Part shown: positions 10,881 through 44,861 of the stretch, piece by piece
Layout of the letters: every line of letters starts with the position of its first letter
How positions within the stretch are numbered: position 1 is the stretch's first letter
Source of the DNA: an uncultured archaeon
Lineage (GTDB): Archaea; Nanohalarchaeota; Nanosalinia; Nanosalinales; Nanohalalkaliarchaeaceae
NCBI GenBank assembly: GCA_964617945.1
Contig: CAZTXA010000001.1
Coordinates: forward strand, 1 to 60,846
Reading direction: 5' to 3'
Length of the DNA stretch: 60,846 bases
Notes under the pieces: model-generated
Told to the model about the DNA's origin: nothing
What the model saw: only the letters and a program-made list of their open reading frames with translations
Databases searched by the model: none
Position numbers and translations under genes: made by a program

Positions 10881-10940
10881 CACAGCCGCAGGTTATATAG
10901 GCGTCCGACGTCACCGTGACGGTATGTCGCGAGGTGGCCG

Positions 10941-20931: not shown

Positions 20932-21930
20932 TTATTCTATCGAATACCGGAGCTCTGCCGCGATCCCGCCCAGCGATGCCAGCTTCTTCCCGGCGTCGTG
21001 GTCCTCGTGCACCAGCTGCACGGTGCCGTCCTGCTGCTCCACCTGCTCCACGAGCTCCTCCTTCTCCCGGATCATCCGGTCCGTCACCAGCAACCGTTCC
21101 ACCGCCCCCATCTCCACCGCCTCCTGCACCGGGTCCTCGCCGTAGGTGACATCGCCGTCGCTGTGCAGCTCGTCCAGGAACCGTTCCACCGCCTCCGTCT
21201 CATCTGATATCCGGGACTGCTGCCGCACACGGTCGACCGCCCCCCGCTTGATCACCTCCTGGACACCGGCCATACCGGTCGTGCTGGCGTCCTCGACCGT
21301 CACCACGTCCGCCAGCTCGTCGTCTTCGATCCGGTCAACAAGGTTCTCCTTCTCGAACCCGGGGCCTGCAACGATGATATGGTCGACACCGGTGTGTTCG
21401 GACAGGACCGCGATAACCTCTCTGTAGAATTCTTCCTGGCTCTGGGCGTCGTCCCGGTACATCTTCCCCGACGCACCGCTCCGGACCTCGGACAGCTCCC
21501 TGATACCGGTCTCCGTGATGACGGCGAAATTGGCGCCGTCACTGTCCACCATGCAGACCAGGATCTCGTACTCGTCCGTGTCCGCCGCCTGTTCCACCCG
21601 GTCAAGCTGGTGGTCGTCCCACCGCTCCTTCCACATCTCCACCGTCACGCCCGGTTCGAGGTTGAACGTGTGGTACCCGTGCTGCACGTCGTCCGGCGCA
21701 TGCGTTATCTCTCCCGTGGCGCGTAACCGGCCTCCCTCGTACTCCGTCTTCTCCACCTCCAGCTGCAGGGTCGCGTACCGCTTCTCCCCGCCCTCGATCG
21801 TCGTCCGCTGGTCGTCCATCCGCAGTATATCGCCGGGTTCGACGACATGCCGCAGATGCCAGAGATCCGCATCTGACTCTATCTCCAGCTCCATATACCC
21901 TTCCTTCGTATCCTGGTCCAGAACGTTCAT
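20932..21930 (-). CDS. pelA: Pelota (Dom34) mRNA surveillance / ribosome rescue factor
   Basis: The whole length resembles archaeal Pelota: MELEIESDADLWHLRHVVEPGDIL, IVAGPGFEKE, and an eRF1-like C-terminal domain. Confidence 0.9.
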   Translation of the reverse strand: MNVLDQDTKEGYMELEIESDADLWHLRHVVEPGDILRMDDQRTTIEGGEKRYATLQLEVEKTEYEGGRLRATGEITHAPDDVQHGYHTFNLEPGVTVEMWKERWDDHQLDRVEQAADTDEYEILVCMVDSDGANFAVITETGIRELSEVRSGASGKMYRDDAQSQEEFYREVIAVLSEHTGVDHIIVAGPGFEKENLVDRIEDDELADVVTVEDASTTGMAGVQEVIKRGAVDRVRQQSRISDETEAVERFLDELHSDGDVTYGEDPVQEAVEMGAVERLLVTDRMIREKEELVEQVEQQDGTVQLVHEDHDAGKKLASLGGIAAELRYSIE

Positions 21931-21993: not shown

Positions 21994-23136
21994 ATGGCGT
22001 CCGAATTTGTCTACGTACTGGCCGCTGGCATAGCAATCCTCGTGGTCGGCGGCGTTCTCGCCGGTCTGACCGATGAGGTCGGCGTAGGAGGGCCGGACGG
22101 CGATACAGTCGGACGCCAGCTCGCGTCATACTCTCCAGGGACCATCGGGGCGATCGATTCGACGTCACGCACCCTCCAGTTCGGTGACGTGACCGTGGCG
22201 GACGAGTCGCCGAACGTCACCGCAGCGACACGTGGCACCGTTTCAGTGTCGTCCAGCGTGCTTGACAGTTCGACAGAGACAGTAACGTTCGAGTCCCAGT
22301 CCCCCCAGCGAGTGTTTATCTCCTTCACCCCGTCACAGGCGGCCGACCCTGACAGCCTCATCATCACGGTGAACGGGGAAGCGGTTGATATCCCTGACTT
22401 CGAGGTCGGCGAACCCGTGACGATCAGTGCGGAGAGCGTACAGTCCGGGCGGAACAGCATCGTGTTCCGCGCCGAGGATCCGGGCGCAGCGTTCTGGCGG
22501 CGTCCGTCCTTCACGCTCGACGACGTTGAGGTAGTGGTCGAGGACGCGGCGAACGCGGGCACTGTAGAGACGTTCCGCGCCTACCAGTACGAGGTCGAAG
22601 GATTTGACCGCGGCGAGCTCAGGTTCTCGGTAACGGAGGACGTGGTCCGGGACGAACCCCTGCGGATACAGATCAACGGGAACACCGTGGTTGAACGGTC
22701 CCCGGTCACCCGTGCCCTCCCGTACACGGCGACGTTCTCAGCAAACGAGACCGGGATCTCGGCCGGTGAAAACGTGCTGGCGGTGCGGACCGGTGGCGAT
22801 TCCCGGTACACCCTGGACAACCTGCAGATGACGCTGTACTTCTTCGCCGGGACGGAACGCCGCACCGTAGAGCGCGAATTCCAGATGCCGCCGTCGACGT
22901 ACCGAAACCTCGGCGATGACGGTGGGAACATCACTATCGAGGTGGACCGCGTAGGGCTGCAGCGACCGGTCACCATCGAACTCGGGAACGCGACGTTTAC
23001 ACGGACGCTGGACGTCGGCGAGAACGTTATCCGGTTCGGCCAGTCAGATGTGGGGAAGGGGACGAACACGGTACGGATATCGACCGACGGATCCTACCGC
23101 GTCCCGCGGATAACGGTTTCTGCGGCTGATGGATAA
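21994..23136 (+). CDS. N-terminally anchored surface protein with three repeated beta-domains (uncharacterised)
   Basis: TM helix FVYVLAAGIAILVVGGVLAGL. Three modules of the type ITVNGEAV..SGRNSIVFRAEDPG / IQINGNTV..AGENVLAVRTGGDS / IELGNATF..VGENVIRFGQSD. Confidence 0.6.
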   Translation: MASEFVYVLAAGIAILVVGGVLAGLTDEVGVGGPDGDTVGRQLASYSPGTIGAIDSTSRTLQFGDVTVADESPNVTAATRGTVSVSSSVLDSSTETVTFESQSPQRVFISFTPSQAADPDSLIITVNGEAVDIPDFEVGEPVTISAESVQSGRNSIVFRAEDPGAAFWRRPSFTLDDVEVVVEDAANAGTVETFRAYQYEVEGFDRGELRFSVTEDVVRDEPLRIQINGNTVVERSPVTRALPYTATFSANETGISAGENVLAVRTGGDSRYTLDNLQMTLYFFAGTERRTVEREFQMPPSTYRNLGDDGGNITIEVDRVGLQRPVTIELGNATFTRTLDVGENVIRFGQSDVGKGTNTVRISTDGSYRVPRITVSAADG

Positions 23137-24157
23137 CGACAGCCGCCTCAACCTACTTAAGGCCGAGATACACATCTACCAGCAGGAGAAACCTCTGAAA
23201 TCATCCTATCTCAACACCATGGCCGACGATAACAGTGATACTGCTGCTGCCGAGGAACCGTCTGGACAGCGATCAGGCCTGAACCATGAGATGGCGGAAG
23301 CGGTGCGGGATACGGGCGTCACGGAAGAGGTCCGCGAATCGATTACGGAGGATGTGGAGGAGCGGGTGGAGGGCGAGGAGCAGGGCCGCGCCCGCATGTT
23401 CTCGAAGGACCAGATCATCCACGAGGCGGCTATCCTGGCCCGTGGTATGTACGGGACCACGAGACCGAGCCTGGAGATGGATACCTACGGGGAGCGGCGG
23501 AAAGAGGAAGGATACTATGACCTGGTGGACTGCTGGCTGGTCGTCGCCCACAGGCTCGACGACAAGTACCATGAGACCTTCCTCAGGCGGGCGACACCCT
23601 TTCCGTGGAAGGCCAGGATGAACCGGTACCTGATCCCGAACTACTACCTGTTCGCGTTGGAAGGTGTTGACCGCGCTATAGAGGAGAAATATATCAGCCC
23701 CCTCTTCAGCGATAAGCTGGAGTACCGGTTGGGCGCACATACGTCGTTCCCCTTCCTGGTTGTCGGGCCGCCGCTGGCGTACTTCGACTGGGCCCCGTTC
23801 GGACCGACAACGGAAGAGGCGCGGGCCTACGCCGCGATTGAAGATAGTTCTGGGGCTGACGCTGATGTTGAAGAGATGAAGGAGGACCTGGAATACTACA
23901 AGCGGCGGGTATACGAGCTCGGGAACACCGTTGAACGCCACGAGGAGAAGATCGATGAACTCGACCGGATTATCAGGTCAACGAAGTCAAAACGTGAAAG
24001 CGTGCCGGAGGGAAGCGACGAGGCGGCGGACCTGGAGGACCGCTTGGACGAGCTGGAGGAGCGGCGCGACACGATAACCGCCGACATGGAGGACGCGATG
24101 GAAAAAATGGAGGCAGCATACGCCAAGTATGAAGAACTGGCGGACGAAACACCGTGA
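23129..24157 (+). CDS. acidic cytoplasmic protein with C-terminal coiled coil (uncharacterised)
   Basis: No TM helix or signal peptide. C-terminal heptad-rich region EMKEDLEYYKRRVYELGNTVERHEEKIDELDRII...LEDRLDELEERRDTITADMEDAMEKMEAAYAKYEEL. ATG 23129 overlaps the upstream stop by 8 nt. ATG 23219 (MADDNSD) is an alternative start. Confidence 0.55.
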   Translation: MDNDSRLNLLKAEIHIYQQEKPLKSSYLNTMADDNSDTAAAEEPSGQRSGLNHEMAEAVRDTGVTEEVRESITEDVEERVEGEEQGRARMFSKDQIIHEAAILARGMYGTTRPSLEMDTYGERRKEEGYYDLVDCWLVVAHRLDDKYHETFLRRATPFPWKARMNRYLIPNYYLFALEGVDRAIEEKYISPLFSDKLEYRLGAHTSFPFLVVGPPLAYFDWAPFGPTTEEARAYAAIEDSSGADADVEEMKEDLEYYKRRVYELGNTVERHEEKIDELDRIIRSTKSKRESVPEGSDEAADLEDRLDELEERRDTITADMEDAMEKMEAAYAKYEELADETP

Positions 24158-24184
24158 GAACAGAACCCTGCGTGACATCAACGA

Positions 24185-25093
24185 ATGCTCTGGAACGATG
24201 ACCTGAAGAAGCGTGTGAAGGAGGTCCGCAAGGAGTACTATGGCACGATAGACTCCCTGGAAGGGTCGCCCTCGTCCGCGGACTATCACTGGAAGACCGT
24301 CGTCGGCGTCTTCCTGTCAGCTATCTACATCCTCATCCTTATCGGGACCGATTTGATCACGAACAGTTACGTCTCCGTCCTCAGCGGGATAATCGCTGCT
24401 GTCGCGCTCGTGAAGGCGAGTCAGAAAGGGATAACCGCAGGATATGTTATCGGCGGGATACTCCTCCTGCACCCCGGGTACGCCGCCCTCTCCATCTTCG
24501 GCCTCGATATCAACGCCATCGCGGTCATAATCGGGATCGCTGCAGGCGTACTCTCTGTCTTCCAGGAAGGCCCGGTGCAATCCACTGGCGGCGGACGGCC
24601 GGGTGCAGATGTACAGAACGCTATTTTCAAGGCGGGCGCGCTCGCGTTCCTCCCTATATGGATCGTTGCCGGGGTCAACGTCGTCCTGTCAGCCCTGGCA
24701 GGGCAGTTCCTCAACACCGGGTTCGTCGTCGCCAGCATCGTGACCGCAGGGACCTCGGTGTTCCTGTTCACCCACGACAATATCAAGTACGCCCTTGCCT
24801 GGTACATCGGATCCGTAAGCTTCTTCGTGTCCGCGCTCGAGGTCGCGGAGGATCCGGACGAACGGACAGGACTGGACAAGATAGTGATTGCTGGCTTGGT
24901 GCTGTGGATGCTGGTGGCGATGGCGGTAGGACTCATCCGACTGACAGGGGTGTTAGGGCTGGAAGTCGAAGGAGTGTTCATCGCATTTTTCCTGTCGATG
25001 GGCGGGCCGATGGCGCTCTATGTGGCTGAACGCGCAGTCTGGAACCGTTTAGAGCCGTCAGGCGGCTCCGGTGGAGGTGGTGGCGGTGGCTAA
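24185..25093 (+). CDS. polytopic membrane protein (about 8 TM helices) with a poly-Gly C-terminus (uncharacterised)
   Basis: Hydrophobic helices run through the whole protein. It ends in SGGSGGGGGGG. Confidence 0.6.
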   Translation: MLWNDDLKKRVKEVRKEYYGTIDSLEGSPSSADYHWKTVVGVFLSAIYILILIGTDLITNSYVSVLSGIIAAVALVKASQKGITAGYVIGGILLLHPGYAALSIFGLDINAIAVIIGIAAGVLSVFQEGPVQSTGGGRPGADVQNAIFKAGALAFLPIWIVAGVNVVLSALAGQFLNTGFVVASIVTAGTSVFLFTHDNIKYALAWYIGSVSFFVSALEVAEDPDERTGLDKIVIAGLVLWMLVAMAVGLIRLTGVLGLEVEGVFIAFFLSMGGPMALYVAERAVWNRLEPSGGSGGGGGGG

Positions 25094-27143
25094 CGGGGGC
25101 AACAGTGGTGACAGTGGCTCGGACCGCCGCCAGCAGATCAGAGAAGGGGTTAGAAAAGCAAAGGCGGGCGCGCCAACCGCCGCGAAGTACGGCGGAATCG
25201 CCCTCCTTGGAATCGGGGTTGTCCTGCTAGGACTCCTCCTGATAGTATCCTTCGGAGTCTCCGTGTACTCCATGTTTGCGAACCTGATGAACGACGCCGT
25301 GTTCCTGGCGACGGTTGTCGTGTTCGCATACGGGATGGTGTTCTGGAATTTCTCGCGGCACTTCTTCGGTGAGCTTGAGGGCCCGGCAGCCCTGGCCGCA
25401 CACTACATCATCAGCATCTTCATCTTCGCCCTGTTCGGCATAGTGCTACAGCTCTTCAGCAGGGCGGCGAGCCTCGGCAGCGCCAACCCGCCGGCCCTGC
25501 TGTACCTGGTCTCGATGGCGTTCTTCGTCATCATGGTCTACCGTGTCGCTGAAGAACTCACCGAGGGCCATGAGCACAGCCGGTGGTTGATGATAGGGAG
25601 TCTGTTCGTCGCCCTGGTCCTCGTCTTTTTCATCGGACAGTGGGCTGTCGGGGGATGGGGGAACATCGGGGGCGTCATCGGGGAAGCTGGATACAACCTG
25701 GAGGACACCCTGGTCGGTGTCCCCCTCGACATCCTCGGCAATGTCTGGAGCAGTTTCCAGGCACAGCTCTCGGTCTGTAATAACCCGACTATCGGCCAGA
25801 TCCAGTGCACTGCCGACCTGTACATGGAGGGAGCGGTGTACGAGGCGGTGGCAGGGTCTGCATCGGTGTCGCAGTGTGTCCAGCAAAAGATCGAGAACCA
25901 GTGTGGCCCGGCGACCGAGAGCGAGGAAGTCACCGACCCCTTGATCGTGGAGGTGCAGGAACCGATCATCGAACCGTTGCAGGACCACGTCCGGTTCTTC
26001 GTACCGGTCACGAACACGCTCGTCAACGATATCCAGGGACGTGTCATCGACATCCCGGCGCGCGAGGTCTCCGTCGACATCGCGTTCCAGTACCTCGACA
26101 AGGTGGTGGCGTCAGAGCAGACCTCGGTCGGCGAGATACAGAACGGGGATACCGCGAACATCATGTTCAACGAGCGCGACGACGGGTCGTACTACTTCCC
26201 CCGGTTCGAGCTGAGCTCGGCCATATCCAGGACCGAGATCCAGCGCCGGCTCATCGATGTCTCGGAGGACTGTGAGAACGGGGTGGACTATCCAGACGAG
26301 GCTTCGTCGGAGTGCCAGGCCAGTGTGAACTGGTTCCTCGACGCGTTCGACGGGAACGCAGAGGACGTGTCGGACCTCCAGGAAGGCTCGTTCCTCTCTA
26401 CGGCCCGCGTCGGATTCATCGCGAAGACCCGGCTGGACCTGCCGGGGAGCTTTGAAGAAGAGTTCCCGCAGCCGCTGTACGAGGAGATAGACGAGTACCT
26501 CGGTGACAGCAACATCCTCGCGCCGGACCGTGAACACGATGTGACTATAACGGTAGATTACAAGTATTCGGCGGACGCTGCGTTCACCCAGTCCAGCCGG
26601 TGGAAGAGCGGTAACCAGCTCCTCAAGGTGTGGCGGTACGACGACTGGAACGAGCTGACCCCTGAGGAGCGGCAGGAGTGGCGGCAGCAGAACTGCGACG
26701 AGGTAACGCGCGCCGGGGAGACGTTCCAGAAGCAGCGGACCGCCTCCCTCACGACACCGATCGTCCCGGTGATGTACGCTGACTGTGGCGGCGTCCTGTT
26801 CAGCCGCTTCAGTGCGGACGCCGGGTACACAGGAGACATCCCTATCCAGGTAGCGGCGACGGTGAACGATAACGTCCGTGAACGTGTCTCCGATAAAGGG
26901 TTCAAGATCATAAGCGCTAACACGAACTGCGGCGACGGCAGCCTTGACGGGCTTACCGGCAAATGGTACAACCGGCGGGAGGAAGGCGGCTTCCAGGTGG
27001 ATCCGGTCACGATCACCCGGTCAGATGTAACGGTGGACGGCGAGCGTATGACGATAGGGTGCAGGGTTTCGATGGACGTACAGGTACGGCTCCAGGACAC
27101 GACAACGTTCCAGGAAGGGGGTGACGAAGAATCAGACGGATGA
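25071..27143 (+). CDS. large membrane protein: about 5 N-terminal TM helices plus a Cys-containing ectodomain of about 450 aa (uncharacterised)
   Basis: GTG start region 25071-25086 overlaps the upstream stop. The exact start is uncertain. The ectodomain shares strand motifs with the downstream lipoproteins (VTITVDYKYSADAAF, IGCRVSMDVQVRLQD). Confidence 0.6.
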   Translation: MEVVAVANGGNSGDSGSDRRQQIREGVRKAKAGAPTAAKYGGIALLGIGVVLLGLLLIVSFGVSVYSMFANLMNDAVFLATVVVFAYGMVFWNFSRHFFGELEGPAALAAHYIISIFIFALFGIVLQLFSRAASLGSANPPALLYLVSMAFFVIMVYRVAEELTEGHEHSRWLMIGSLFVALVLVFFIGQWAVGGWGNIGGVIGEAGYNLEDTLVGVPLDILGNVWSSFQAQLSVCNNPTIGQIQCTADLYMEGAVYEAVAGSASVSQCVQQKIENQCGPATESEEVTDPLIVEVQEPIIEPLQDHVRFFVPVTNTLVNDIQGRVIDIPAREVSVDIAFQYLDKVVASEQTSVGEIQNGDTANIMFNERDDGSYYFPRFELSSAISRTEIQRRLIDVSEDCENGVDYPDEASSECQASVNWFLDAFDGNAEDVSDLQEGSFLSTARVGFIAKTRLDLPGSFEEEFPQPLYEEIDEYLGDSNILAPDREHDVTITVDYKYSADAAFTQSSRWKSGNQLLKVWRYDDWNELTPEERQEWRQQNCDEVTRAGETFQKQRTASLTTPIVPVMYADCGGVLFSRFSADAGYTGDIPIQVAATVNDNVRERVSDKGFKIISANTNCGDGSLDGLTGKWYNRREEGGFQVDPVTITRSDVTVDGERMTIGCRVSMDVQVRLQDTTTFQEGGDEESDG

Positions 27144-28087
27144 TGCTACTGTTACCGGCGTTATTAGTCCTGCTGGCCGGTTGTACAGATCTTCCCGGCG
27201 GGCAGCAGACGCAAGACGAACAACCGGACGTGATACAGGTTGACCGTCCTACGTGCCAGGTCGGCGGGCAGCGCTGCTCCGCCGGCTCGGTGACCCGGTT
27301 CGCCGGCACCGGCGAGGTACGGCTCGCCCTTACAAACAACGGGGAACGCCCGATAACGGTCAACGTTGGCCAGAACGGGCGTCAGATGATGGTGTCCAAG
27401 TGTAACGATGAGCTTGTCCGGATCGGGTCCGTGACAGAAGGGTTCCGGGTGCTGATACAGGGACCGTCAGAGTACACCGAGGAGACATCGTTCAGCCCGG
27501 GAGGGACCATCGATGTGGAGGAGAACCAGCGGATGACCGCGATATGGCCGCTCACCATAGAGGCCGGACCGGACACGCTCTCCCGCCTCGGCAACTCGTG
27601 CCAGATGGACTTCGAAGTATCGTTCGACCAGACCATCGAGACCTCGCGCCAGGTACAGATAAAGCAGGACCGGGACGTCCCTGACGCCGCGAGCCTGGAC
27701 ACGACCACCACGTCCAAGCGGCCGGTCAGGCTCCGGGTCGAGGCCCCGGACTCCATCGTCCGCGCCGAGGGACGGAACCTTGTGGCGGAGGCGTTCTTTG
27801 AGAACGTGGGAGACGGCGAGATCACTGATGTCCAGCGTATCGAATACATGTCTGGCTGGGACGCCCTGTTCCAGTGTTCCCCGTCCAACAGCGATCTCAG
27901 GGTGTACGGCGAGGGCCCCCGCGAGGGACAGAGCTACCGGAAGAGCTGTTCCTTCCCGGTCGGGCCCGACGATGATGGTCCGCGGTCCACCGTGGAGTGG
28001 CTACGGTTCGAGGGAGACTACAGTTACAGGATGTCGCTCGGTACGGAAACAATCGAACTCCGGCCCGCCCCGGGGGAGGGTGGATGA
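27140..28087 (+). CDS. lipobox lipoprotein, paralogous surface family member 1
   Basis: MMLLLPALLVLLAGC-T lipobox. ATGA overlap with the upstream stop. Terminal strand WLRFEGDYSYRMSLGTETIELR. Confidence 0.65.
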   Translation: MMLLLPALLVLLAGCTDLPGGQQTQDEQPDVIQVDRPTCQVGGQRCSAGSVTRFAGTGEVRLALTNNGERPITVNVGQNGRQMMVSKCNDELVRIGSVTEGFRVLIQGPSEYTEETSFSPGGTIDVEENQRMTAIWPLTIEAGPDTLSRLGNSCQMDFEVSFDQTIETSRQVQIKQDRDVPDAASLDTTTTSKRPVRLRVEAPDSIVRAEGRNLVAEAFFENVGDGEITDVQRIEYMSGWDALFQCSPSNSDLRVYGEGPREGQSYRKSCSFPVGPDDDGPRSTVEWLRFEGDYSYRMSLGTETIELRPAPGEGG

Positions 28088-28992
28088 TGGACACGGCATC
28101 GGTGTGGAAGATGGGAGGTATGCTGCTCGTGGCCATCGCACTGGCAGGATGCACCGCGTTCCCCGGCGGGGGTTCGACATCCGACGAACCGCCGGCACGC
28201 GGACTCGTCATCCAGGAGGTGCAGCTGGAGAACAACGCCATCCCGGACGACGGGGGTACACGGCTCGTCCTCCGCGTGGCGAACACGCAGCCGGACGCGG
28301 CGGAGAACGTGAGAATCGATATCACGAATACCGGCGCGGTGCAGACAGAGCTACGGACGGAAGACAGCGATTCAAAATGCACATCGGCATTCGATAGCGA
28401 CCCGACTGATTACCCGGATATCGACGCCGCATCACAGGGCGTACCGACAGAACTCCTGTGCGTGTGGGACATCAACGGTAACGGTGCGGCGGAAGGGTCG
28501 TACCCGCTGACAGTGACGGTCGATTACACGAACACGCTCACGATGCAGCAGGAGTCGCCGAAGATAACGTTCGACCCGGACCGGCAGATCGCCGCCCCCA
28601 CGACCTCGCGGACCTACAGCAACGGCGAACTGTCGATGACCGTCAGCTACCCGCCGCGACTGCCCTCCAGCGCGAACGAGTTCGATGTTGAGACAAGCCT
28701 GTCGGACGTAGGCCCCGGCAGGGTAGTAGGACGGTCCCAGATCGGCTGTGAGGGGACATGTGCGACCATCGAGTACAGCGGGTCGCTGAAAACATCGGCA
28801 GGGTTCACCGAGTCCGGTGAACGCTGTGGTACCGCCCGGTTCCTGGAAGGTGAGAGCCAGGTAACGACCAGCTGCGAGTTCACAGGGGGAGATACAGGGG
28901 ATACGATTACGACACACAACCTCCGTGCGGACGCCAGTTACGGCTACCAGGTATCACGTGAACTCCCGTTGCAGGTCGTGGTAGACGACTAG
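28084..28992 (+). CDS. lipobox lipoprotein, paralogous surface family member 2
   Basis: Start ATG 28084 (ATGA overlap). GGMLLVAIALAGC-T lipobox. VLRVANTQPDAAENVRIDITNTG. Terminal strand LRADASYGYQVSRELPLQVVV. Confidence 0.65.
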   Translation: MMDTASVWKMGGMLLVAIALAGCTAFPGGGSTSDEPPARGLVIQEVQLENNAIPDDGGTRLVLRVANTQPDAAENVRIDITNTGAVQTELRTEDSDSKCTSAFDSDPTDYPDIDAASQGVPTELLCVWDINGNGAAEGSYPLTVTVDYTNTLTMQQESPKITFDPDRQIAAPTTSRTYSNGELSMTVSYPPRLPSSANEFDVETSLSDVGPGRVVGRSQIGCEGTCATIEYSGSLKTSAGFTESGERCGTARFLEGESQVTTSCEFTGGDTGDTITTHNLRADASYGYQVSRELPLQVVVDD

Positions 28993-29984
28993 ACGCCGAG
29001 TACAGCGCGGACGAGGTTCCGGACGCCGGGCCCCAGCCCGACCGCGAGGATGCCGAGCAGGACAAGGTTGTAGAACAGGGGGTCGTCGTCCCGGTCCGTG
29101 CCGTGCATGACTCCAAGGACTGCCAGGATGACCGCGGCCTTTGCAACCGGGAAGCTATACGGCGTCCCTGTCGCGTCCATGATGAACGCTGAGACCGGGT
29201 GCTTCTCTCCGTATCCAAGTACCGCGATGGAGAGCGCTGTCGCGCTCCCATCGATCATATGCCCGCCGAGCACTGTCCCGCCTTCCCAGGTCATAGCCGC
29301 CGACAGCCCGTCCCAGGACCGGCGCCCGTACCACGCCACCGCTACGGCTGCAGCTGTCAGCACCGCGGCCAGTCCGAGCCCCGCCGGCAGCATCCACGCC
29401 GCCGCTACTGGTTCAGCACCGGCCAATAGGAGGGTGGTGGCGGCGACGGCAACTATCCCCCCGCCGGCGATGACAGACTTGTAGTCGCTGACAACGCCAC
29501 GCCGGTCCAGTACTGCAGCGACCGCAAGCGTTACGATCACGATAGCGGCCACCGTTCCATAGATCACCGGTGATATGAAGAGATACTGTAACGGCCCTGA
29601 GAGGATGGCCGCGTCCTCCACCACGCGCACCAGCCCGCCGAAGATGATGAACGGGACGAACCAGAGGATGAATCCCCGCTCCCTGCCGAGCTCGTACCGC
29701 TGTAACACGTGGAAGAGGACGGTGATCGCGTAGATGACGATGAGCCCGTAGACGACCTCGTTGACAAGGTTGTACCCGCGCTCAGCGACAACGCCGTGGT
29801 ACGTTGCCGTCGCCTGGTTCGCCGCATCTGCCACGACCGGGCCGACAACATACTTCCAGATAACCTGGTCGTAGACGATGGAGGGAAACGCGGCGGCAGC
29901 GAGCAATACCGTCGCTAGGATAACCGTGCCGCCGAGGAGAAGTGCCTGGAGACGGGAGAGCCCGCGCATCACCGTGGTCGCCAC
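28989..29984 (-). CDS. polytopic membrane protein (DUF63-like, tentative)
   Basis: About 8 TM helices, with GGHMIDGSATALSIAVLGYGEKHPVSAFIM. GTG start 29984 (ATG 29969 is an alternative). It shares a CTAG stop with the 28084 gene. Confidence 0.55.
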   Translation of the reverse strand: MATTVMRGLSRLQALLLGGTVILATVLLAAAAFPSIVYDQVIWKYVVGPVVADAANQATATYHGVVAERGYNLVNEVVYGLIVIYAITVLFHVLQRYELGRERGFILWFVPFIIFGGLVRVVEDAAILSGPLQYLFISPVIYGTVAAIVIVTLAVAAVLDRRGVVSDYKSVIAGGGIVAVAATTLLLAGAEPVAAAWMLPAGLGLAAVLTAAAVAVAWYGRRSWDGLSAAMTWEGGTVLGGHMIDGSATALSIAVLGYGEKHPVSAFIMDATGTPYSFPVAKAAVILAVLGVMHGTDRDDDPLFYNLVLLGILAVGLGPGVRNLVRAVLGV

Positions 29985-30059
29985 TTCGCTGACATAACTT
30001 ATAAATACCCTGCAGATAATACGGCAATCAGTGCTGGACGAAGTCGTGAGGGGCTAATA

Positions 30060-30989
30060 ATGGAGAATCGTTACCTGTTTGCGCTGTCACTGGTCGCGGT
30101 CATAGCGCTGGCCGGATGCACCGCGCTGCCATCTTCTTCTGACGGCGATGATGAGCCGGAGACACGGTACCGTATCACACAGGATGACGGCCTCACACTC
30201 TCGTTCCAGTCGCTACAGAGCAGCTATTTCGAAGACGGGCAGATCGTGCTCGAGTTCACCGCCCAGAACACCGGGCAGAGCGTAGCCGAGAACGTGGAGG
30301 CGCGGCTGTACGGTGCGAGCTTTATCGCCGGGGACGAACTGGATCTTTCCCAGACCGTGCTGGACGGGGTTGACAGTGAAGCCCAGCAGGCCGGTGGTAT
30401 CGCAACGGCGACATACCAGGCTGACAACCCTGTCGACCTGAGACAGGGAGAGACCCGTTCATTCCCTGCAGGCGTCCGGGCGGCATACGACTACAACACC
30501 GACGCATCAGCCGCGTTCAGGGTTATGCCGCGTGAAGATTTCCCTGGCGGGAGCGAGCTCGTCACGACAGAGAACACGGCAGGACCGCTGAAGGCTGATA
30601 TCGAGGTCCAGTCACCGAAACCGGTCTCCCCGCCGCCGGGTGAGGACTCGGTGACAGTATCGATCCCTGTCGTGGTACAGAACGTTGCCGGTGGGAAGGT
30701 CGTGGAGGGTATCAACGGTAATCGGGGAGACGTGGATCTCACCCTTGAATTCCCGACGGCGGACTCGGAAACGGCCGAGATAACGGACTGCGGCGGTTCT
30801 GGCGGGACGTCGACCAGTTTCAGTTTCCCGCGTGGCCAGACGGAGCGGCAGGTCGTCTGCACGGCAGAGATCAGTGAGGATGTGTTCGACACCCAGCTCA
30901 CGCTGGAAGCAGACCTCGATTACACGTATTTCGAGACGACCGAGACAACGTTCCGGGTAGAAGGACTGTCCGGCGACCAGACAGGGTAA
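30060..30989 (+). CDS. lipobox lipoprotein, paralogous surface family member 3
   Basis: LVAVIALAGC-T lipobox. DGLTLSFQSL...LEFTAQNTGQSVAENVEARLYG. Terminal strand LEADLDYTYFETTETTFRVEG. Confidence 0.65.
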   Translation: MENRYLFALSLVAVIALAGCTALPSSSDGDDEPETRYRITQDDGLTLSFQSLQSSYFEDGQIVLEFTAQNTGQSVAENVEARLYGASFIAGDELDLSQTVLDGVDSEAQQAGGIATATYQADNPVDLRQGETRSFPAGVRAAYDYNTDASAAFRVMPREDFPGGSELVTTENTAGPLKADIEVQSPKPVSPPPGEDSVTVSIPVVVQNVAGGKVVEGINGNRGDVDLTLEFPTADSETAEITDCGGSGGTSTSFSFPRGQTERQVVCTAEISEDVFDTQLTLEADLDYTYFETTETTFRVEGLSGDQTG

Positions 30990-31024
30990 GATAGAAAAGC
31001 AGTCGGCACCCATCCGAGGCCACG

Positions 31025-31861
31025 ATGCGAACCCTGACCCTCCTCTTCTTCACTACACTCCTCCTTGCAGGCTGTACCAGTGCCCCTGGACAGGTGGACG
31101 GCCTGTTCGGCGGCGGTGAGGACGAGGTGCCAGAGACTGACGGGCTCTCCCTCTCCTTCGAACAGCTCGGGACCTTCGCGCTCGAGACTGAGGAGGTGAC
31201 GCTGGAACTGTCGGTGGAGAACGTGGGCCAGGCGGACGCGGAGAGCATCGAGGCGCAGGTGTTCGGCCCCTCCTGGATATCCGGCAGCCGTTCGATCGGG
31301 ACGCTGCAGGGGGTTGACCGGGCAGCCGGCCAGGCGGGAGAGAGCGCGGTGGCCGAGTGGTCGCTGAGCCCGCCGGACGTTGACACGGACACGTCGCAGG
31401 AATACGATGCAACAGCACAGGTAACGTACGTCTACGAGACGACCGCGACCATATCAGCGGCGCTGTCGCCAGAGGGCTTTACCACGTCACAGAGCACGGT
31501 GGAGGCCGGGATGACAGACGGACCGGTCCAGATGTCCACAGACCTGGAGACACCGATCCCGACGCAGGGGGAGACAAGTCATACGATCCCGCTCACCATC
31601 ACAAACGCTGGCGACGGCGTTATCAACAGCCAGGTCGACCTGACCGGGCAGCTCGTCGGTGCAACAGGAGGTATATCGCTGACAGGGTGTGATACCACCG
31701 TGTCGGTCGACGAGGAGGCGGACGTGACGTGTACACTGGAGACGCCTGAGGACGGCGTTTCAGTGGATACGACGGCGGATATCCGTATCACCGCCCGGTA
31801 CGAGTACCAGGAGGAGACATCGACAACGGTAACAGTCCGCGGCGTGCAGGGCGCAGAGTAA
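31025..31861 (+). CDS. lipobox lipoprotein, paralogous surface family member 4
   Basis: LFFTTLLLAGC-T lipobox. DGLSLSFEQL...LELSVENVGQADAESIEAQVFG. Terminal strand IRITARYEYQEETSTTVTVRG. Confidence 0.65.
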   Translation: MRTLTLLFFTTLLLAGCTSAPGQVDGLFGGGEDEVPETDGLSLSFEQLGTFALETEEVTLELSVENVGQADAESIEAQVFGPSWISGSRSIGTLQGVDRAAGQAGESAVAEWSLSPPDVDTDTSQEYDATAQVTYVYETTATISAALSPEGFTTSQSTVEAGMTDGPVQMSTDLETPIPTQGETSHTIPLTITNAGDGVINSQVDLTGQLVGATGGISLTGCDTTVSVDEEADVTCTLETPEDGVSVDTTADIRITARYEYQEETSTTVTVRGVQGAE

Positions 31862-31901
31862 CGACCAATGTTTATGTACGTATAACCCCCATACGCATCC
31901 G

Positions 31902-34232
31902 ATGCGCCGTCACTACATTGCCGGGCTGGTAGTGGTCCTCCTTCTTGCAGGGTGTACCGCGGCCCCGGACGGGGGCACCGACGGCGAGGAGTCAACACGG
32001 ACAACACCCAACGACGGGCTCACCGTCCAGTTCGAACCGGTGAAATCGACGTTCCAGGAGAACGAGGTGCTGCAGTTCCGGCTGAGTGTGGCCAACACCG
32101 GCGCGGCGGAAGCCTCCAATATCGAGGCCTCCACGTTCGGAAGCCCGTTCGTCGACGTCAGCGGCCGCTGCCCGACTCCGCTGGTCGGCGACAACGGTAT
32201 CATCCCGTCGGATATCGGTGCAGGGGAGCCGCCCGAGTCGACCGATAGCTGGCAGTGCGTACCGCCGTCAGCCGGGACAGACTATGGCGGCGATACGTCA
32301 GGTGTGAATGTGGGCCAGCAGCTTATCGACCTGTCCACGGGCGCGACCGACTCGTACGACGCAGGGCTGGAGGTCGCGTACGATTACAGTACGAACGCCA
32401 GTTCCCGGGTGACGGTGACGACGCCCAGCAGGATATCCTCTCCGAGCCCGGTCACTACCGAAAACGATGCCGGCCCGGTCAAGGCCGAGATCAACATGCA
32501 GAGCCCGCAGACGGTCAGAAGCGACGGAACGATGGACATCCCGGTGACCGTCCGTAACGTGGGCGACGGAGAGACCATCGGTGGGAGGTTCGAGGGGAAG
32601 GACGTCAAGGTCACGGTGACGTGTCCGCAGTGTTCTGGTGGTGACGGGTCGTCGCAGACGGAACGCATAAATCTTGTCGACGGCCGCCGGCAGGTCGTCG
32701 TCTCCCTGGACGGGTTCACCCTGCCGGAGGATGCTGACAACCTGGAGCGGTCGTACCCGATCGATATCTCTCTCGAATACCGGTACCGTGAACGGGTGTC
32801 CAACAGGTTCACGATCGGTGGGCAGCCGGGTGGCGTCTCTCTTGAGACGCTTGAACAGGCGCAGCTGCCGCCGGCAGATGACGGGGACGCAGTGGATGTG
32901 GACGATGGGGACGAGGGGGACGACAGGGAGGGAGAGACAGTGACGCTGACTGTGGGCCGCAACGACGATGCATCGGCAGATGCATCAGAGTACAGCGTCC
33001 TGTTGAGGAAGAACGAGGGAGAGCCTATCACGGCCACGATACGGGCAGGTACCGGTTTCAGCGACCAGTGCGACGCGCGTGCGACCCTCGACGTTGCCGG
33101 GGGGTCAGCGACGATACACCAGGATTCGCGGATGGAGGAGATTTCCGGCACCGAGGACGCCTCCGGCACTGTTGATATATCGCTCAGCGACTGGGAGTGC
33201 AGGGAGGGAGGAGAGGAGCCGTTCCAGCTCGGGTGCCTGCCACCTGACACGGCGTCGGTGGAGCTCGGCTCGTCAGAGCAGGAACGGTCTGTGACGTGTT
33301 TCAGTGGAGGGGTAACGTACGATGCGACCATCCTCTTCGGGGACAGCCCGGTCAGCGAGGCCCGTGTCAGCTATGAAGGGTCCGGTCGGAAGGTGGCGCC
33401 TGCGGAGGACCCGCCCCAGTTCAGCTTCTCGGGGGAGGAGATAGGGACGACGGTGCCGTTCACTGCGACGGAGTTAGACGGCTGCGCTGACACGTCGCTG
33501 GACGTTGTCATCGGGCGAAGCGGGGGTTCGACAGGAGTGACCTGCAGTACAGAGGCGATAAGCAGGCTGTCCGGTGACACTGTCTTCGCCGTCGATCTCG
33601 TGAGTGGGAGTGTGGCCGACCCCGATATCGGCACACAGTACTCGGTGACGGCAGAGAAGGGGACGGAGACCGTCGAGGAAGAGGGCGAGGAGCGGGAGCG
33701 GACAGTGCTCGACGTGTCGGTAAGGGACAACGAGGATCTTGGCTGTGGAACCGGGAACGGTGCGCCGCAGGTTAGAGTGAACACGCGGATAGAGTGGGAC
33801 GGAAAGCCGTGGCTGTGGGGCGGTACGCTCACCATCCCGACAGAGGAGGGCGGAGCATCGCTGGCCGATGTACGCTGCCCGGACGAACCGGCCGTCGCCT
33901 GTCTCCCCATCGACGAGGAGATAGATCCCAGCGAGATGGAAACAGGGGCTTCGAGGACGTTCACGACCACGTGTTTCGAGGGGGCTCTGCCCTATGACAC
34001 CAACGTGTTTGACGGAGGGACACAGGTGAGAGGCACGGTCGCTCTGGGAGATACAGAGAAGGAGACCGGCGTAAACAGGGGCTCCGTATTCGAGGTCGGA
34101 GGACCTGACAGCCGGTGGAGCGTGGGAGACACAGTGCTCTTCTCAGTGTCCTTCGTCGAGGACTGCGAAAACGATACCGCGGAAGTGGTTATCGGGAGCG
34201 ACGGGAACACGAAGGAACTGACCTGTGAATAA
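31902..34232 (+). CDS. large lipobox lipoprotein (776 aa), paralogous surface family member 5 with an extended C-terminal region
   Basis: MRRHYIAGLVVVLLLAGC-T lipobox. DGLTVQFEPV...FRLSVANTGAAEASNIEASTFG. IDISLEYRYRERVSNRFTIGG. An acidic linker DDGDAVDVDDGDEGDDREGE, then about 450 further aa with paired Cys. Confidence 0.65.
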   Translation: MRRHYIAGLVVVLLLAGCTAAPDGGTDGEESTRTTPNDGLTVQFEPVKSTFQENEVLQFRLSVANTGAAEASNIEASTFGSPFVDVSGRCPTPLVGDNGIIPSDIGAGEPPESTDSWQCVPPSAGTDYGGDTSGVNVGQQLIDLSTGATDSYDAGLEVAYDYSTNASSRVTVTTPSRISSPSPVTTENDAGPVKAEINMQSPQTVRSDGTMDIPVTVRNVGDGETIGGRFEGKDVKVTVTCPQCSGGDGSSQTERINLVDGRRQVVVSLDGFTLPEDADNLERSYPIDISLEYRYRERVSNRFTIGGQPGGVSLETLEQAQLPPADDGDAVDVDDGDEGDDREGETVTLTVGRNDDASADASEYSVLLRKNEGEPITATIRAGTGFSDQCDARATLDVAGGSATIHQDSRMEEISGTEDASGTVDISLSDWECREGGEEPFQLGCLPPDTASVELGSSEQERSVTCFSGGVTYDATILFGDSPVSEARVSYEGSGRKVAPAEDPPQFSFSGEEIGTTVPFTATELDGCADTSLDVVIGRSGGSTGVTCSTEAISRLSGDTVFAVDLVSGSVADPDIGTQYSVTAEKGTETVEEEGEERERTVLDVSVRDNEDLGCGTGNGAPQVRVNTRIEWDGKPWLWGGTLTIPTEEGGASLADVRCPDEPAVACLPIDEEIDPSEMETGASRTFTTTCFEGALPYDTNVFDGGTQVRGTVALGDTEKETGVNRGSVFEVGGPDSRWSVGDTVLFSVSFVEDCENDTAEVVIGSDGNTKELTCE

Positions 34233-34242: not shown

Positions 34243-35505
34243 TTAGAACGCGTCCAGCTGTTCCTGTACCTGTTCGTACCGGCACTCCAGCTCCGCCGCC
34301 CGGTTCTCCTCGATGCGTTCTTTCTCTCCCTCGTCGCTCGGGATAATCATCTCTCCGTACTCACCGCCTCCGCCTGGAACCATCACGATCTCGTCCTCCC
34401 GGAACGTCCGTACCGCCTCGCCGACCTCCTGGTTGACCGACTTCAGCTCCTCGATCGGTGTATCTGTTAGCATCGTGATCTCCGACGTAAACTGTTCCTG
34501 GAACCGGTCGTAGATGTCCTGCACGGTCTTGGTCGTGGGCGAGGCGTGCCCGACAACGTGCTGTATGATCTCTGCCAGTGGGAACAGGTGGACATAGTCC
34601 GGCCGGTGTCCCGGCGAGTCACCGACCGCCGTGTCGGACAGCTCCTGGATCCGGTCCCGCACACCCTGCTTGACCGTCCCGCCGCACTCCGCACAGTTCC
34701 AGCCGAACTCCTGCGCCTGCTCCATCGTGTACGGCTGGTAGCAGTCGATGCACGCGGTACAGTGGTACTTCCCTTCCCGCGGGTTGAACCCGGCGTTCAG
34801 CGTGGTGCCGCGGCCCCCGTCCCGGTCGAACGCCTTCTCGATCTCCCGGAAGGACGGTTCCTGCACCTCAAACCGTGTGAACTCGCGGCCGAGCCGGTGC
34901 GGCCACGGCGAGTGTGCGTCCGAGAAACTGGCGAACGTCAGGTCGTGGTGGGCCGTGATCGAGTCCGCCAGCGCGGTGTCTGCGGACAGCCCGAGCTCGA
35001 GGAAGGACAACACATCGGTACTGTTCCCGTAACAACCTTCCAGGGCGTCGAACTCCTTGTATATAGCAGTCCACGGAGTGAATGCGTGCGCCGGACCGAT
35101 AAGGACGCCATATCTCTCGCATATCTGGGCTATACGCTCGCCGCTGACGTCCAGCCGCGGTCGGCCCTCATCGTCGATATCGGATGAAAACCGGCTGAAA
35201 TCCTCGTATGCGTCCTCGACCGCGCCGAACGACGGGAACAGGAGGAGGTGGTGGATACGGTCCGTATCTTCGACCTCCGTGGTCAGCAGGAACGTGGTCC
35301 CGTCCTCCGCTTCGAGGATCCCGTTACCACGGTCTTCTGTCGTCTCCTGGATGTGGTCGCGCCACGCAGGGTTGAGACAGTCACCGGTGCCGACCAGGTC
35401 CAGTCCCTTGATGTCGGCCTGCTCCGCGATCACCGGGATCTCCATCCTGTCCGAGACCCCGCCGGAGTGAAGGCCGTGGAGGTGGAGGTCAGCATCGATC
35501 TCCAT
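34243..35505 (-). CDS. PHP-domain protein of the archaeal COG1379/TIGR00375 type
   Basis: MEIDADLHLHGLHSGGVS...KGLDLVGTGDCLNPAW, then a Cys cluster CTACIDC...CAECGG. Start ATG 35505 is preferred over GTG 35529. Confidence 0.75.
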   Translation of the reverse strand: MEIDADLHLHGLHSGGVSDRMEIPVIAEQADIKGLDLVGTGDCLNPAWRDHIQETTEDRGNGILEAEDGTTFLLTTEVEDTDRIHHLLLFPSFGAVEDAYEDFSRFSSDIDDEGRPRLDVSGERIAQICERYGVLIGPAHAFTPWTAIYKEFDALEGCYGNSTDVLSFLELGLSADTALADSITAHHDLTFASFSDAHSPWPHRLGREFTRFEVQEPSFREIEKAFDRDGGRGTTLNAGFNPREGKYHCTACIDCYQPYTMEQAQEFGWNCAECGGTVKQGVRDRIQELSDTAVGDSPGHRPDYVHLFPLAEIIQHVVGHASPTTKTVQDIYDRFQEQFTSEITMLTDTPIEELKSVNQEVGEAVRTFREDEIVMVPGGGGEYGEMIIPSDEGEKERIEENRAAELECRYEQVQEQLDAF

Positions 35506-35539
35506 ACTGGAGAGAACCGGGTGGAACACTTAACTTCGT

Positions 35540-37129
35540 TTACTCTTCCAGCTGGTTCCTGATCTCGTTGATAACAGTGTTCCGGTTCTTCCCCTGCTTC
35601 TCCTCCTCCATCAACACTTCCAGGAACTCGTCGCTGAGATTGTCGTCCCGCAGCCCCTTGACCACGGTGTTCGTGTTCTGGTCGAGGACGTCGTCCGCGG
35701 ACTTGTGGTAGTCACGCATCTGGGTGGATGGCGTCACTCCGACCTCTTCACGCCGGAGGAAGTAGTACCCGCCGATGAGGAGGATGAGCGCTGTCACGAT
35801 GACCGCGGCGATGCCAGACGACTGGCCGGTGATGCGCCCGACCGGCGTCCGCGTCCCGGCCATCTCAAGCGTGACGGTACCGTTCCGGGCTGTCGCGTTC
35901 ATCTGTACTGTGTTCCGCACCCCCTGTCCCGAGACGACCATCGTCGCCGTGTAGGTGCCGTCGCCGAAGAAGTCTGGCGCCATGTACACGTATACTGGTG
36001 CTGTGTCGTTGGGCTCCAGCGAGACGTTGGCCGGCTCGGCGTCCATCCAGTCCGGCCCGTCGAGCTCCACGGTGTACGTATTCGTCTGTGTACCGTTGTT
36101 CGTCAGTGCGAACTCGACCAGCGTCCGGTTCCCTGCCTCGGGGGCGGTCGTCACCGGTTCAAGGGAGAGGTCGTGGCACCTGTCGATACTGACCTCCGAC
36201 ATCGCGGAGTCCTGCACGCGGGCGAGGCTGGTCGATGTTGCGGAGACCTGGATGTTCCCGGTGATGTCCGCGGCCGGGATCGACTCCTCCACGGTTACAG
36301 TCTGCCCGGCGGCCACGGAGACGTTCCGTGTCTCCCCGCCGATCGCAACGCGGTACGTATCATTGATACGGCCGTTGTTGGCGACGGTCGCTGTAAGCAG
36401 GAAGTCGTCCGAGTTGCACAGGGACGCGGTCTCCGGGGCGACGGACACGTCTACGTCCCGGCACGCCTCTGCTACAAATTCGATGTCAGTGGTATCCGTT
36501 GCATAACTGGTTGTAGAGTCCGCGCGGACCCGGACAGTTCTGTCCATCTCCTCGGTGCTTGACAGGGTCAGCGTCACCGTCTGTTCGTCGCCGGAATCGA
36601 GTGTGACGGTGTCGGTGGAGAGCTGTCCCGCATCAGCGGACAGTTCATAGGTCTCCTCGACCTGCCCCTGGTTCTCGATATCGATCCTATACACTGCCTC
36701 GTCGCCGCGGCATACCTGCTGCCGGTCCTCCACTGTTTCGAGCGCGACGGAGCGACAGCTGAGGACGTTCAACGTGCCGGGTTCGATTGCTGTATCCCCG
36801 TTGTTGGAGGAGGTTGCGGACACGGTGAACTGGTGCTCTCCCGGTGCGGCGGTCTTCGGTGCCTGTACCCACAGCGGGATGCGTTCCGTCCCTCCGGGGT
36901 CGATCCGGACTGTGTCTGTCGGGAGGGTGGACGCACCTGTCCACGGCCCCTCAACATCTATCGTGTACCTGTCTCCCGCCGGGCCGGGGTTATGTAGCTG
37001 GACGGTGTACTGGCCGCTCCCGGTCGGACACGCCTGCCCGTTCCCCGTGTTCACGGATAGCTGCGGTGTCCCAGCAGCTGCAAGCGGGACAAGGAGGAGA
37101 ACGGCGAACAGGGGGAGGACACGCTTCAT
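35540..37129 (-). CDS. secreted, C-terminally TM-anchored multi-domain (CARDB/NEW3-like) surface protein with a cytoplasmic tail
   Basis: Signal peptide MKRVLPLFAVLLLVPLAAAG. Repeated beta-domains (YTVQLHNPGPAGDRYTIDV, YRIDIENQGQVEETYELS, ATVANNGRINDTYRV, FALTNNGTQTNTYTVEL). Many N-x-S/T sequons. TM helix IAAVIVTALILLIGGYYFL. Tail of about 80 aa. Confidence 0.65.
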   Translation of the reverse strand: MKRVLPLFAVLLLVPLAAAGTPQLSVNTGNGQACPTGSGQYTVQLHNPGPAGDRYTIDVEGPWTGASTLPTDTVRIDPGGTERIPLWVQAPKTAAPGEHQFTVSATSSNNGDTAIEPGTLNVLSCRSVALETVEDRQQVCRGDEAVYRIDIENQGQVEETYELSADAGQLSTDTVTLDSGDEQTVTLTLSSTEEMDRTVRVRADSTTSYATDTTDIEFVAEACRDVDVSVAPETASLCNSDDFLLTATVANNGRINDTYRVAIGGETRNVSVAAGQTVTVEESIPAADITGNIQVSATSTSLARVQDSAMSEVSIDRCHDLSLEPVTTAPEAGNRTLVEFALTNNGTQTNTYTVELDGPDWMDAEPANVSLEPNDTAPVYVYMAPDFFGDGTYTATMVVSGQGVRNTVQMNATARNGTVTLEMAGTRTPVGRITGQSSGIAAVIVTALILLIGGYYFLRREEVGVTPSTQMRDYHKSADDVLDQNTNTVVKGLRDDNLSDEFLEVLMEEEKQGKNRNTVINEIRNQLEE

Positions 37130-37163
37130 AGGAATTTATCTACGCCACAATAGTTAAATACGT

Positions 37164-44687: not shown

Positions 44688-44835
44688 GATTTCACCATGA
44701 AGTGACAACAGGAACAAACATTTTTAAAATCGTCGGCAGTACCGCAAATATGGCGAATATAGGGCCTATAGTTGCCCGCCGGGGCCGGTTGATGCGGCCG
44801 GGGTCGCCCGCCCCACCACAACCTTTTTATATTGT

Positions 44836-44856
44836 TACTGTTAAATGATAACAGTA
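44836..44856. repeat. inverted repeat TACTGTTA-aatga-TAACAGTA between the TATA box and the start of the 44862 gene (candidate operator)
   Basis: Read directly from the sequence. TATA TTTATAT at 44826-44832, ATG at 44862. Confidence 0.4.
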
Positions 44857-44861
44857 GATTG

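Follow-up and report, generated by a model that had tools for sequence, protein, structure and literature searches.

The window analysed here is an entire NCBI contig of 60,846 bp (CAZTXA010000001.1), with a G+C content of ~62% and predicted proteins that are very acidic. Between pelota (20932-21930, minus strand) and an MJ0043_C-family gene (34243-35529, minus strand) it carries a cluster of ten genes, in which genes for five lipobox lipoproteins and for membrane proteins surround one gene of the AliA_AliB family. We number the genes g1 to g10 in window order and label the related contigs compared with the window L001-L005 and L007-L011. The cluster contains the following features (aa, amino acids).

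g1, 21994-23136, plus strand: protein of 380 aa, anchored in the membrane by its N terminus (residues 1-32), with three ~100-aa repeats and no cysteine
g2, 23129-24157, plus strand: acidic cytoplasmic protein whose conserved core (residues ~88-240) is followed by a coiled coil at the C terminus; probable start at 23219
g3, 24185-25093, plus strand: fast-evolving polytopic membrane protein with a Gly-rich tail
g4, 25071-27143, plus strand: 690-aa protein with a basic N terminus, five transmembrane helices, a juxtamembrane region that is helical and an ectodomain (residues 290-681) rich in cysteine and in beta structure
g5, 27140-28087, plus strand: lipobox lipoprotein (LLAGC) with 7 Cys, a distant member of the two-domain family
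g6, 28084-28992, plus strand: lipobox lipoprotein (ALAGC), member of the same family
aliA-like gene, 28989-29984, minus strand: PF01889/DUF63 protein of the AliA_AliB family; converges on g6 (4-bp overlap) and diverges from g8
aliA/g8 divergent spacer, 29985-30059, no strand: 75 bp with conserved TTATAAATA at 29999-30007
g8, 30060-30989, plus strand: lipobox lipoprotein (ALAGC), the most conserved of the lipoproteins, with two predicted tandem immunoglobulin (Ig)-like beta-sandwich domains
g9, 31025-31861, plus strand: paralogous lipoprotein (LLAGC)
g10, 31902-34232, plus strand: lipoprotein (LLAGC) with a two-domain module (residues 1 to ~320) and a 450-aa cysteine-rich C-terminal extension

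An earlier, sequence-only reading of this DNA had described nine plus-strand open reading frames (ORFs), all of which exist where it placed them. The ATGA start/stop overlaps that it noted at 27140 and 28084 are present in the sequence, and the stop codon of g3 (25093) overlaps the GTG starts of g4 at 25071 and 25086. Two of its statements about the layout have to be revised. The overlap of g1 and g2 (23129/23136) is probably an effect of choosing the longest ORF: six of six g2 orthologues start at residues aligned with M31 (MADD..., window 23219), and in the orthologues this start lies 70-110 bp downstream of g1. The “two back-to-back operons” are separated by the opposite-strand gene at 28989-29984, which that reading did not mention.

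The ten products were scanned with Pfam, NCBIfam and PHROG, and the PDB was searched with single sequences and with profiles. No cluster protein except the AliA-like one reached a Pfam or NCBIfam cut-off, and there was no credible PHROG or PDB sequence match, so the description of the products as uncharacterised holds. PHROG returned coiled-coil noise for g2 and a match at E 0.026 for the aliA product. Pfam and NCBIfam gave no match to ATPase, permease, solute-binding-protein or MCE families in the cluster and none to an S-layer domain or PGF-CTERM signal in any product; T2SSE and T2SSF were not found inside the cluster. By eye, the N terminus of g1 (MASEF...) lacks the usual charged residue plus G/A class III cleavage motif. 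Our search of the literature on nanohaloarchaeal lipoproteins and S-layer proteins found no description of the cluster. Judged against the curated families, the lipobox and AliA components appear to be of known kinds, and g1, g4 and the two-domain lipoprotein family appear to be orphans outside every family tested. The anatomy of the cluster is new; its function is unproven.

An AliA-family gene among lipoprotein genes

The product of the minus-strand gene at 28989-29984 matches PF01889 (DUF63) with E 1.9e-60 and 205.9 bits (cut-off 25) over profile positions 12-269 of 269, and its orthologues are named AliA_AliB family in precomputed annotation. This match places an enzyme-family gene in the middle of the cluster. 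The sequence-only reading had recognised no ATPase, enzyme or known S-layer/PGF-CTERM signature; as regards enzymes it overlooked aliA, and for the other two it was right. AliA is the most concrete functional link that the cluster offers. The AliA type is defined by two conserved pocket arginines, where AliB has histidines. In six orthologues of the AliA-like protein R96, R120, E123, D124, H242, D245, K261, R322, N323 and R326 (numbering of the window protein) are invariant, and the arginines among them would be compatible with the arginine-bearing AliA type.

AliA (arCOG02177) and AliB (arCOG02178) are the first archaeal components found to be needed for the lipidation of lipobox proteins, in Haloferax volcanii (Nat Commun 2025; PMC12462473). 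AliA is reported in DPANN archaea and AliB in Halobacteria only, and ali genes sometimes lie near lipoprotein genes in Halobacteria (PMC12462473). With the Haloferax volcanii AliA/AliB system the present cluster shares lipobox signal peptides and a gene for a PF01889/DUF63 membrane protein adjoining lipoprotein genes. The ali gene neighbourhoods described so far involve GldA, IMPase, SpoIIM and DeoC (PMC12462473). Unlike in those neighbourhoods, aliA here lies inside a dedicated, conserved set of five paralogous Ig-like lipoproteins and orphan membrane proteins, in a DPANN symbiont.

The spacer between aliA and g8 measures 54-75 bp across loci. Within it, TTATAAATA is conserved in a six-locus alignment and could be a candidate TATA element shared by the two genes.

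The five L-A-G-C lipoboxes read from the sequence earlier are confirmed; they lie 12-20 residues from the start, and the cysteine is kept in orthologues. Under the criterion applied (a hydrophobic h-region, then [L/V/I]-3 [A/S/T/V/I]-2 [G/A/S]-1 C+1), the lipobox cysteine of g5, g6, g8, g9 and g10 falls at residues 15-23, after a hydrophobic stretch, and lipoboxes are present in the orthologues of L001, L003-L005 and L007-L011, a few of them with A at -3. The lipobox G-C, with its cysteine C20, is invariant in an alignment of 18 sequences. A six-frame lipobox scan of the 60.8-kb window returned exactly these five ORFs; outside the cluster the same scan found no lipobox ORF, either in the window or in the DNA that flanks eight related loci (L001, L003-L005, L008-L011). 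As the best-supported reading, the five Ig-like lipoproteins are probably substrates of the adjacent AliA and are probably lipid-anchored at the cell surface.

All five lipoproteins belong to one family. Comparison with blastp shows g8, g9 and residues 1-310 of g10 to be clear paralogues (E 1e-20 to 1e-31; against g8, E 1e-24 to 1e-26 for g9 and 4e-31 for g10). Comparison of orthologue alignments with hhalign extends the homology, full-length, to all five (Prob 96-100%, E 1e-9 to 1e-68), and the paralogy proposed earlier survives real alignment. The link of g5 and g6 to the g8/g9/g10 group is also full-length (Prob 96-99.4%, E 1e-9 to 1e-21): g5 matches g6, g8 and the paralogues with Prob 96-98%, and g6 matches g8 with Prob 98.8% and the paralogues with 99.4%. 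The two halves of the two-domain unit are weakly linked to each other by hhalign. For g8, 16 homologues were found. Two motifs picked out in the sequence-only reading persist among the 18 aligned sequences, with G44 and F49 invariant in the DGL[TS].xF opening of g8, g9 and g10, and Y143/Y145 and Y288/Y290 invariant in the Y-x-Y strands.

That reading had drawn the envelope proteins of the cluster into “one beta-sandwich family”. The term is valid for the five lipoproteins only, since g1 and g4 have no detectable homology to them (hhalign Prob <=2%, 17-21 matching columns). The strand motifs that it had also seen in the 690-aa g4 do not bear this out: VDYKYSADAAF matches over 17-21 columns only, with Prob <=2%.

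The AlphaFold2 model of g8, built on the 18-sequence alignment (mean predicted local distance difference test score [pLDDT] 86.5, predicted template modelling score [pTM] 0.79), has two all-beta domains after a disordered lipobox linker. Foldseek against the PDB gave only generic tandem Ig-like matches (E 2e-5 to 1e-3, TM-score ~0.2, identity 8-12%), which include integrin alpha legs, factor XIII barrels, RbmA and Cna. As modelled, g8 would share with RbmA (Vibrio), Cna (staphylococcal) and the integrin alpha legs two rigid tandem beta-sandwiches, a likeness of fold class only; there is no common sequence family and no common anchoring mode. The CARDB, NEW3 (NPCBM_assoc) and DUF4232 E-set domains are likewise all-beta sandwich domains of secreted or anchored prokaryotic surface proteins. 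Against the CARDB, NPCBM_assoc and DUF4232 families of Pfam all matches of the lipoproteins are sub-threshold (13-17 bits against cut-offs of 22.7-27; best 16.6 against 22.7), and the two-domain unit with its closing Y-x-Y strands is, unlike those domains, specific to the lipoprotein family. Homology of cluster proteins to the neighbouring CARDB/FixG_C proteins was considered and rejected by hhalign, which found no profile similarity. The hhalign results, the alignment, the g8 model and the lack of a link to CARDB/FixG_C together confirm the five lipoproteins as a beta-sandwich family of their own.

Some members carry additions to the two-domain unit. A 575-aa paralogue in L004 and a 569-aa paralogue in L005 have a large insertion between the two conserved domains. 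The C-terminal extension of g10 is an internal duplication (Smith-Waterman score 120 against 40 +/- 7 for shuffles) and has no Pfam match.

Ig-like domain S-layer proteins tile the surface in Haloferax and Nitrosopumilus, and the cluster proteins might analogously be the S-layer itself or its membrane anchor, with lipid-anchored Ig-domain subunits tiling the cell. The tandem Ig-like fold modelled for g8 and the predicted lipid anchoring would suit such a role, as would the high conservation of g8 and g1 relative to their neighbours and the adjoining CARDB/FixG_C proteins in conserved synteny. However, five different small subunits with variable paralogues are unlike a one- or two-protein lattice, Pfam and NCBIfam gave no S-layer or PGF-CTERM signature, and the adjacent 529- and 576-aa CARDB-type proteins, which lack homology to the cluster proteins, are no worse as candidates. 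We consider the S-layer reading quite unlikely.

The membrane proteins and the conservation of gene order

The three repeats claimed for g1 were recovered as internal repeats of ~100 aa (self-hhalign Prob 93%) behind a hydrophobic N terminus. Its orthologues in five loci are 43-59% identical, and it has no Pfam, NCBIfam or PDB match. The coiled coil of g2 was likewise confirmed and is C-terminal; the only profile matches of this protein are sub-threshold and of coiled-coil type (residues 240-340), and among its six homologues the named ones are from Nanohaloarchaea. Hydropathy agrees with the earlier description of g3 as polytopic, with ~6-8 hydrophobic segments and an end that reads SGGSGGGGGGG. 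Orthologues of g3 in L001 (8824-9939), L005 (2486-3835) and L007 (8468-9922) carry an N-terminal CxxC...HxxxxH (sub-threshold zf-C2H2 match, E ~1e-3), which g3 of the window lacks.

For g4, an exhaustive HMMER search with its profile covered 1.84 billion representatives and returned 25 proteins, every one with E<=1e-16 and none in the twilight zone. In L009 two overlapping ORFs (1758-3888) together make up the g4 orthologue, owing to a frameshift or an assembly error. The AlphaFold2 model of g4 has a mean pLDDT of 71 and a pTM of 0.52, with residues 290-681 at pLDDT ~80-90, and Foldseek found no credible fold match in the PDB or BFVD. Short local matches of the ectodomain were to UNC119a, MD-1 and RhoGDI (prob 0.5-0.9, 85-126 columns; E 0.04-0.06, TM-score <=0.3).

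UNC119a, MD-1 and RhoGDI are lipid-binding beta-sandwiches, and to our knowledge DPANN archaea are generally unable to make lipids. The cluster could be pictured as an uptake or scavenging machine, e.g., for host lipids, in which the lipoproteins are binding proteins and g3 and g4 the membrane conduit; polytopic proteins with several lipoproteins do resemble a binding-protein-dependent or Mce-like layout. Any Ig-like domain could give local matches of this quality, however, and they are too weak to count as evidence. The transmembrane region of g4 has no conserved polar residues, Pfam and NCBIfam matched nothing in the cluster to an ATPase or to any other means of energy coupling, and the lipoproteins, with g8 modelled as tandem Ig-like domains, would not have a solute-binding-protein fold. 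Such a machine seems to us improbable.

A candidate gene set for extracytoplasmic disulfide formation lies at 8043-12553 of the window. It comprises a small membrane protein that is VKOR-like by eye (8043-8537), a DsbA/Thioredoxin_4 protein with a membrane anchor (8836-9606; E 9e-35) and a protein that passes the Pfam SfLAP cut-off and has a sub-threshold DsbD_TM match (11843-12553). The presence of this set on the contig fits the many cysteines in the ectodomains of g4, g5, g6 and g10.

The order pelota (minus strand), g1-g6, aliA (minus), g8 with 0-4 paralogues, MJ0043_C (minus) and a CARDB-type gene (minus) recurs in L001, L004 and L005, and the same pelota-to-CARDB order recurs in part in L002, L007, L009 and L011. 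Counted from pelota to MJ0043_C, the order is conserved in at least nine contigs. A variant is found in L003, L008 (Ca. Nanohalalkaliarchaeum halalkaliphilum) and L010, where g1, g5, g6, aliA and g8 are kept and g2 is missing; the polytopic proteins in the g3 and g4 slots of loci of this type have no detectable homology to g3 or g4. The unit in which g6 and aliA converge and aliA and g8 diverge is present in 9/9 loci that cover that stretch, and the ATGA-type coupling of g4-g5-g6 recurs in other loci. Conservation of gene order had been set beforehand as a test of the sequence-only reading, and the order is kept across relatives as distant as ~40% identity. Since g2 is missing and g3 and g4 are replaced in the Nanohalalkaliarchaeum-type loci, the cytoplasm-spanning part does not belong to the conserved core.

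The named carriers are metagenome-assembled genomes (MAGs) of Nanohaloarchaea, an Asbonarchaeaceae MAG and Nanohalalkaliarchaeum (phylum Nanohalarchaeota). The lineage guessed earlier, a halophilic DPANN archaeon, fits, as all named relatives are Nanohaloarchaeota. A pattern scan for g1 matched 3 of 185,579 GTDB species genomes, and scans of Joint Genome Institute (JGI) metagenomes with g8 and g1 profiles matched no contig; both the GTDB and the JGI scans rest on short patterns, and their counts are lower bounds.

A cysteine-rich membrane-anchored ectodomain protein, lipoproteins and orphan families would also be expected of an envelope module of an integrated virus or mobile element, with the lipoproteins as spike or fusion proteins. 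The cluster occupies the same place between pelota and the MJ0043_C-family gene in every locus, however, and base composition is uniform across the window. There is neither a credible PHROG match nor a BFVD fold match, and neither an integrase nor a tRNA flanks the cluster (Rfam and tRNA scans had no match inside it, and the sole tRNA of the window is at 17642). This origin is effectively refuted.

Rates of change differ strongly along the cluster. Relative to L001, identity is 76% for pelota, 63% for g8, 59% for g1, 50% for g6, 47% for g5, 46% for g9, 43% for g4, 39% for g2, 38% for AliA and ~25% for g3. In g10 the base module is 45% identical to the L001 orthologue and the 450-aa C-terminal extension 22%. 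Together with the 0-4 paralogues that follow g8, the pattern of change reads as a conserved base with variable additions.

The same comparisons bear on a reading in which co-location means nothing for assembly: a reduced genome would keep lipoprotein genes beside aliA through co-regulation or tandem duplication, and g1-g4 would be unrelated membrane proteins that share the operon. The replacement or absence of g2, g3 and g4 in L003 and L008, where g1, g5, g6, aliA and g8 stay, is in its favour, as is the lack of homology of g1 and g4 to the lipoproteins; ali genes near lipoprotein genes have been noted in Halobacteria before (PMC12462473). Yet g4, g5 and g6 stay in order and tightly coupled down to ~30-40% identity, and the slot before g5 always holds a polytopic ectodomain protein, even when it is non-homologous. 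We think mere co-location somewhat unlikely.

A lipid-anchored surface coat as a model

Our preferred interpretation, held tentatively and with slightly less than even confidence, is that of a lineage-specific Nanohaloarchaeota envelope cluster around aliA, which would specify a coat of AliA-dependent, lipid-anchored Ig-like proteins at the cell surface, with a conserved base in the membrane and variable modules that face outward. A single surface structure in which the lipoproteins join g1 and the polytopic ectodomain protein is plausible on the basis of conserved order and translational coupling, again with somewhat less than even confidence. A single cytoplasm-to-surface complex of g1-g10, as first proposed, would have operon structure as its only basis.

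What the analysis establishes is the gene anatomy, the paralogy, the fold class, the lipoboxes, membership of the AliA family, the conservation of synteny and a narrow distribution. We infer lipidation by the present AliA, physical assembly, the orientation of the variable parts and any host-contact role in the following scheme. (i) The five paralogous lipobox proteins would be exported. (ii) The AliA-family enzyme would thioether-lipidate Cys+1, leaving the lipoproteins on the outer face of the membrane as paired Ig-like beta-sandwiches. (iii) g5, g6 and g8, which every locus has, would form the invariant membrane-proximal base of the coat together with bitopic g1 and the polytopic ectodomain protein (g4 in the clade of the window). 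(iv) The paralogues after g8, with their fast-evolving insertions and extensions (such as the C terminus of g10), would face outward as a variable, possibly partner-contacting surface. (v) g2 and g3 would be clade-specific accessories on the cytoplasmic or membrane side. Partner contact through the variable paralogues is a speculative element; the idea comes from the symbiotic way of life in this phylum and from the pattern of variability.

Several observations support the coat model. The PF01889 match lies between two lipoprotein operons, and its family has been implicated experimentally in lipidation in Haloferax (PMC12462473). The only lipobox ORFs of the window flank aliA, and likewise in L001, L003-L005 and L008-L011. 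The g6-aliA-g8 arrangement holds in all nine loci that cover it, with TTATAAATA conserved in the divergent spacer, the ATGA coupling of g4-g5-g6 recurs, and the lipoproteins are one family. The nearest folds of g8, as modelled, are tandem Ig domains of adhesin or scaffold type. Paralogue number varies (0-4), one paralogue each in L004 and L005 has an insertion, and the g10 extension is 22% identical (against 45% for its base and 76% for pelota). Cysteine-rich ectodomains and VKOR-like, DsbA and DsbD_TM genes occur on one contig.

Other points weigh against the model. An Ig-like fold does not reveal function, and Foldseek matched the g8 model with TM-scores of only ~0.2. The function of AliA/AliB is established in Haloferax only. 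g2, g3 and g4 are not kept in all loci, which makes a single fixed complex doubtful. For this genome the lipobox scan covers one contig, and the rest of the genome may hold further lipoproteins or another aliA. Finally, co-location in an operon can mean co-regulation without assembly.

A bolder version of the coat model would make the cluster a hitherto undescribed host-contact or host-membrane-scavenging apparatus of one branch of Nanohaloarchaeota. AliA would have been kept in the reduced genome chiefly to lipidate the five Ig-like subunits. The ectodomain of g4 would adopt a new fold, with SSRW...KQRTAALTTP...YTDCGG as its conserved binding site, and the variable paralogues and the g10 extension would set partner specificity. 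We regard this version as unlikely. An analogy may be drawn with the Vlp/Vsp-type proteins of Mycoplasma, variable lipoprotein gene families of wall-less, genome-reduced bacteria, with which the cluster would share tandem paralogues, variable copy number, fast-evolving exposed parts and a genome-reduced, host-dependent cell. There is no homology to those systems; lipidation chemistry and enzyme are archaeal here, and no mechanism for phase or antigenic variation is apparent.

Neighbouring genes and significance

Downstream of the cluster, at 35540-38894 (minus strand), lie genes for two large Ig-like surface proteins in conserved synteny in all long loci. They are a 529-aa protein (FixG_C/NEW3-type, with a C-terminal transmembrane anchor) and a 576-aa protein (CARDB), candidate S-layer or surface proteins that are non-homologous to the cluster lipoproteins. 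Two genes of type IV pilus or archaellum-like character lie at 51008-55759, 17 kb from the cluster, and are not syntenic with it in other loci; one encodes an 871-aa ATPase of the T2SSE family, the other a 710-aa protein whose match to T2SSF (platform) is sub-threshold. Four small hydrophobic proteins that precede this pair (47397-50049) have no Pfam match and could be pilins. A 558-aa protein at 58311-59987 has an N-terminal hydrophobic segment and a C2 domain (PF00168; 35.3 bits against a cut-off of 22, E 1.4e-8); for an archaeal symbiont such a Ca2+/lipid-binding domain is unusual. Further genes encode two divergent, very acidic proteins of 586 and 594 aa (42957-46616; ~25% aspartate plus glutamate, no Pfam match) and a membrane protein of 202 aa (42061-42669) that has a bacterial PH domain (bPH_2) and, below threshold, a GvpG-like segment.

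The first enzymes of archaeal lipoprotein biogenesis were described in 2025 and have been studied in Haloferax only. Here, in a DPANN symbiont with a reduced genome, aliA stands beside what could be the majority of its substrates, which offers a small, defined substrate set for the study of AliA specificity. The cluster also contributes orphan families, namely the two-domain lipoproteins, g1 and g4, the last without a fold match. In the nanohaloarchaeal literature the SPEARE proteins were the only attachment candidates that we found, and the cluster points to the surface proteins most likely to be relevant to the nanohaloarchaeal envelope and to host contact.

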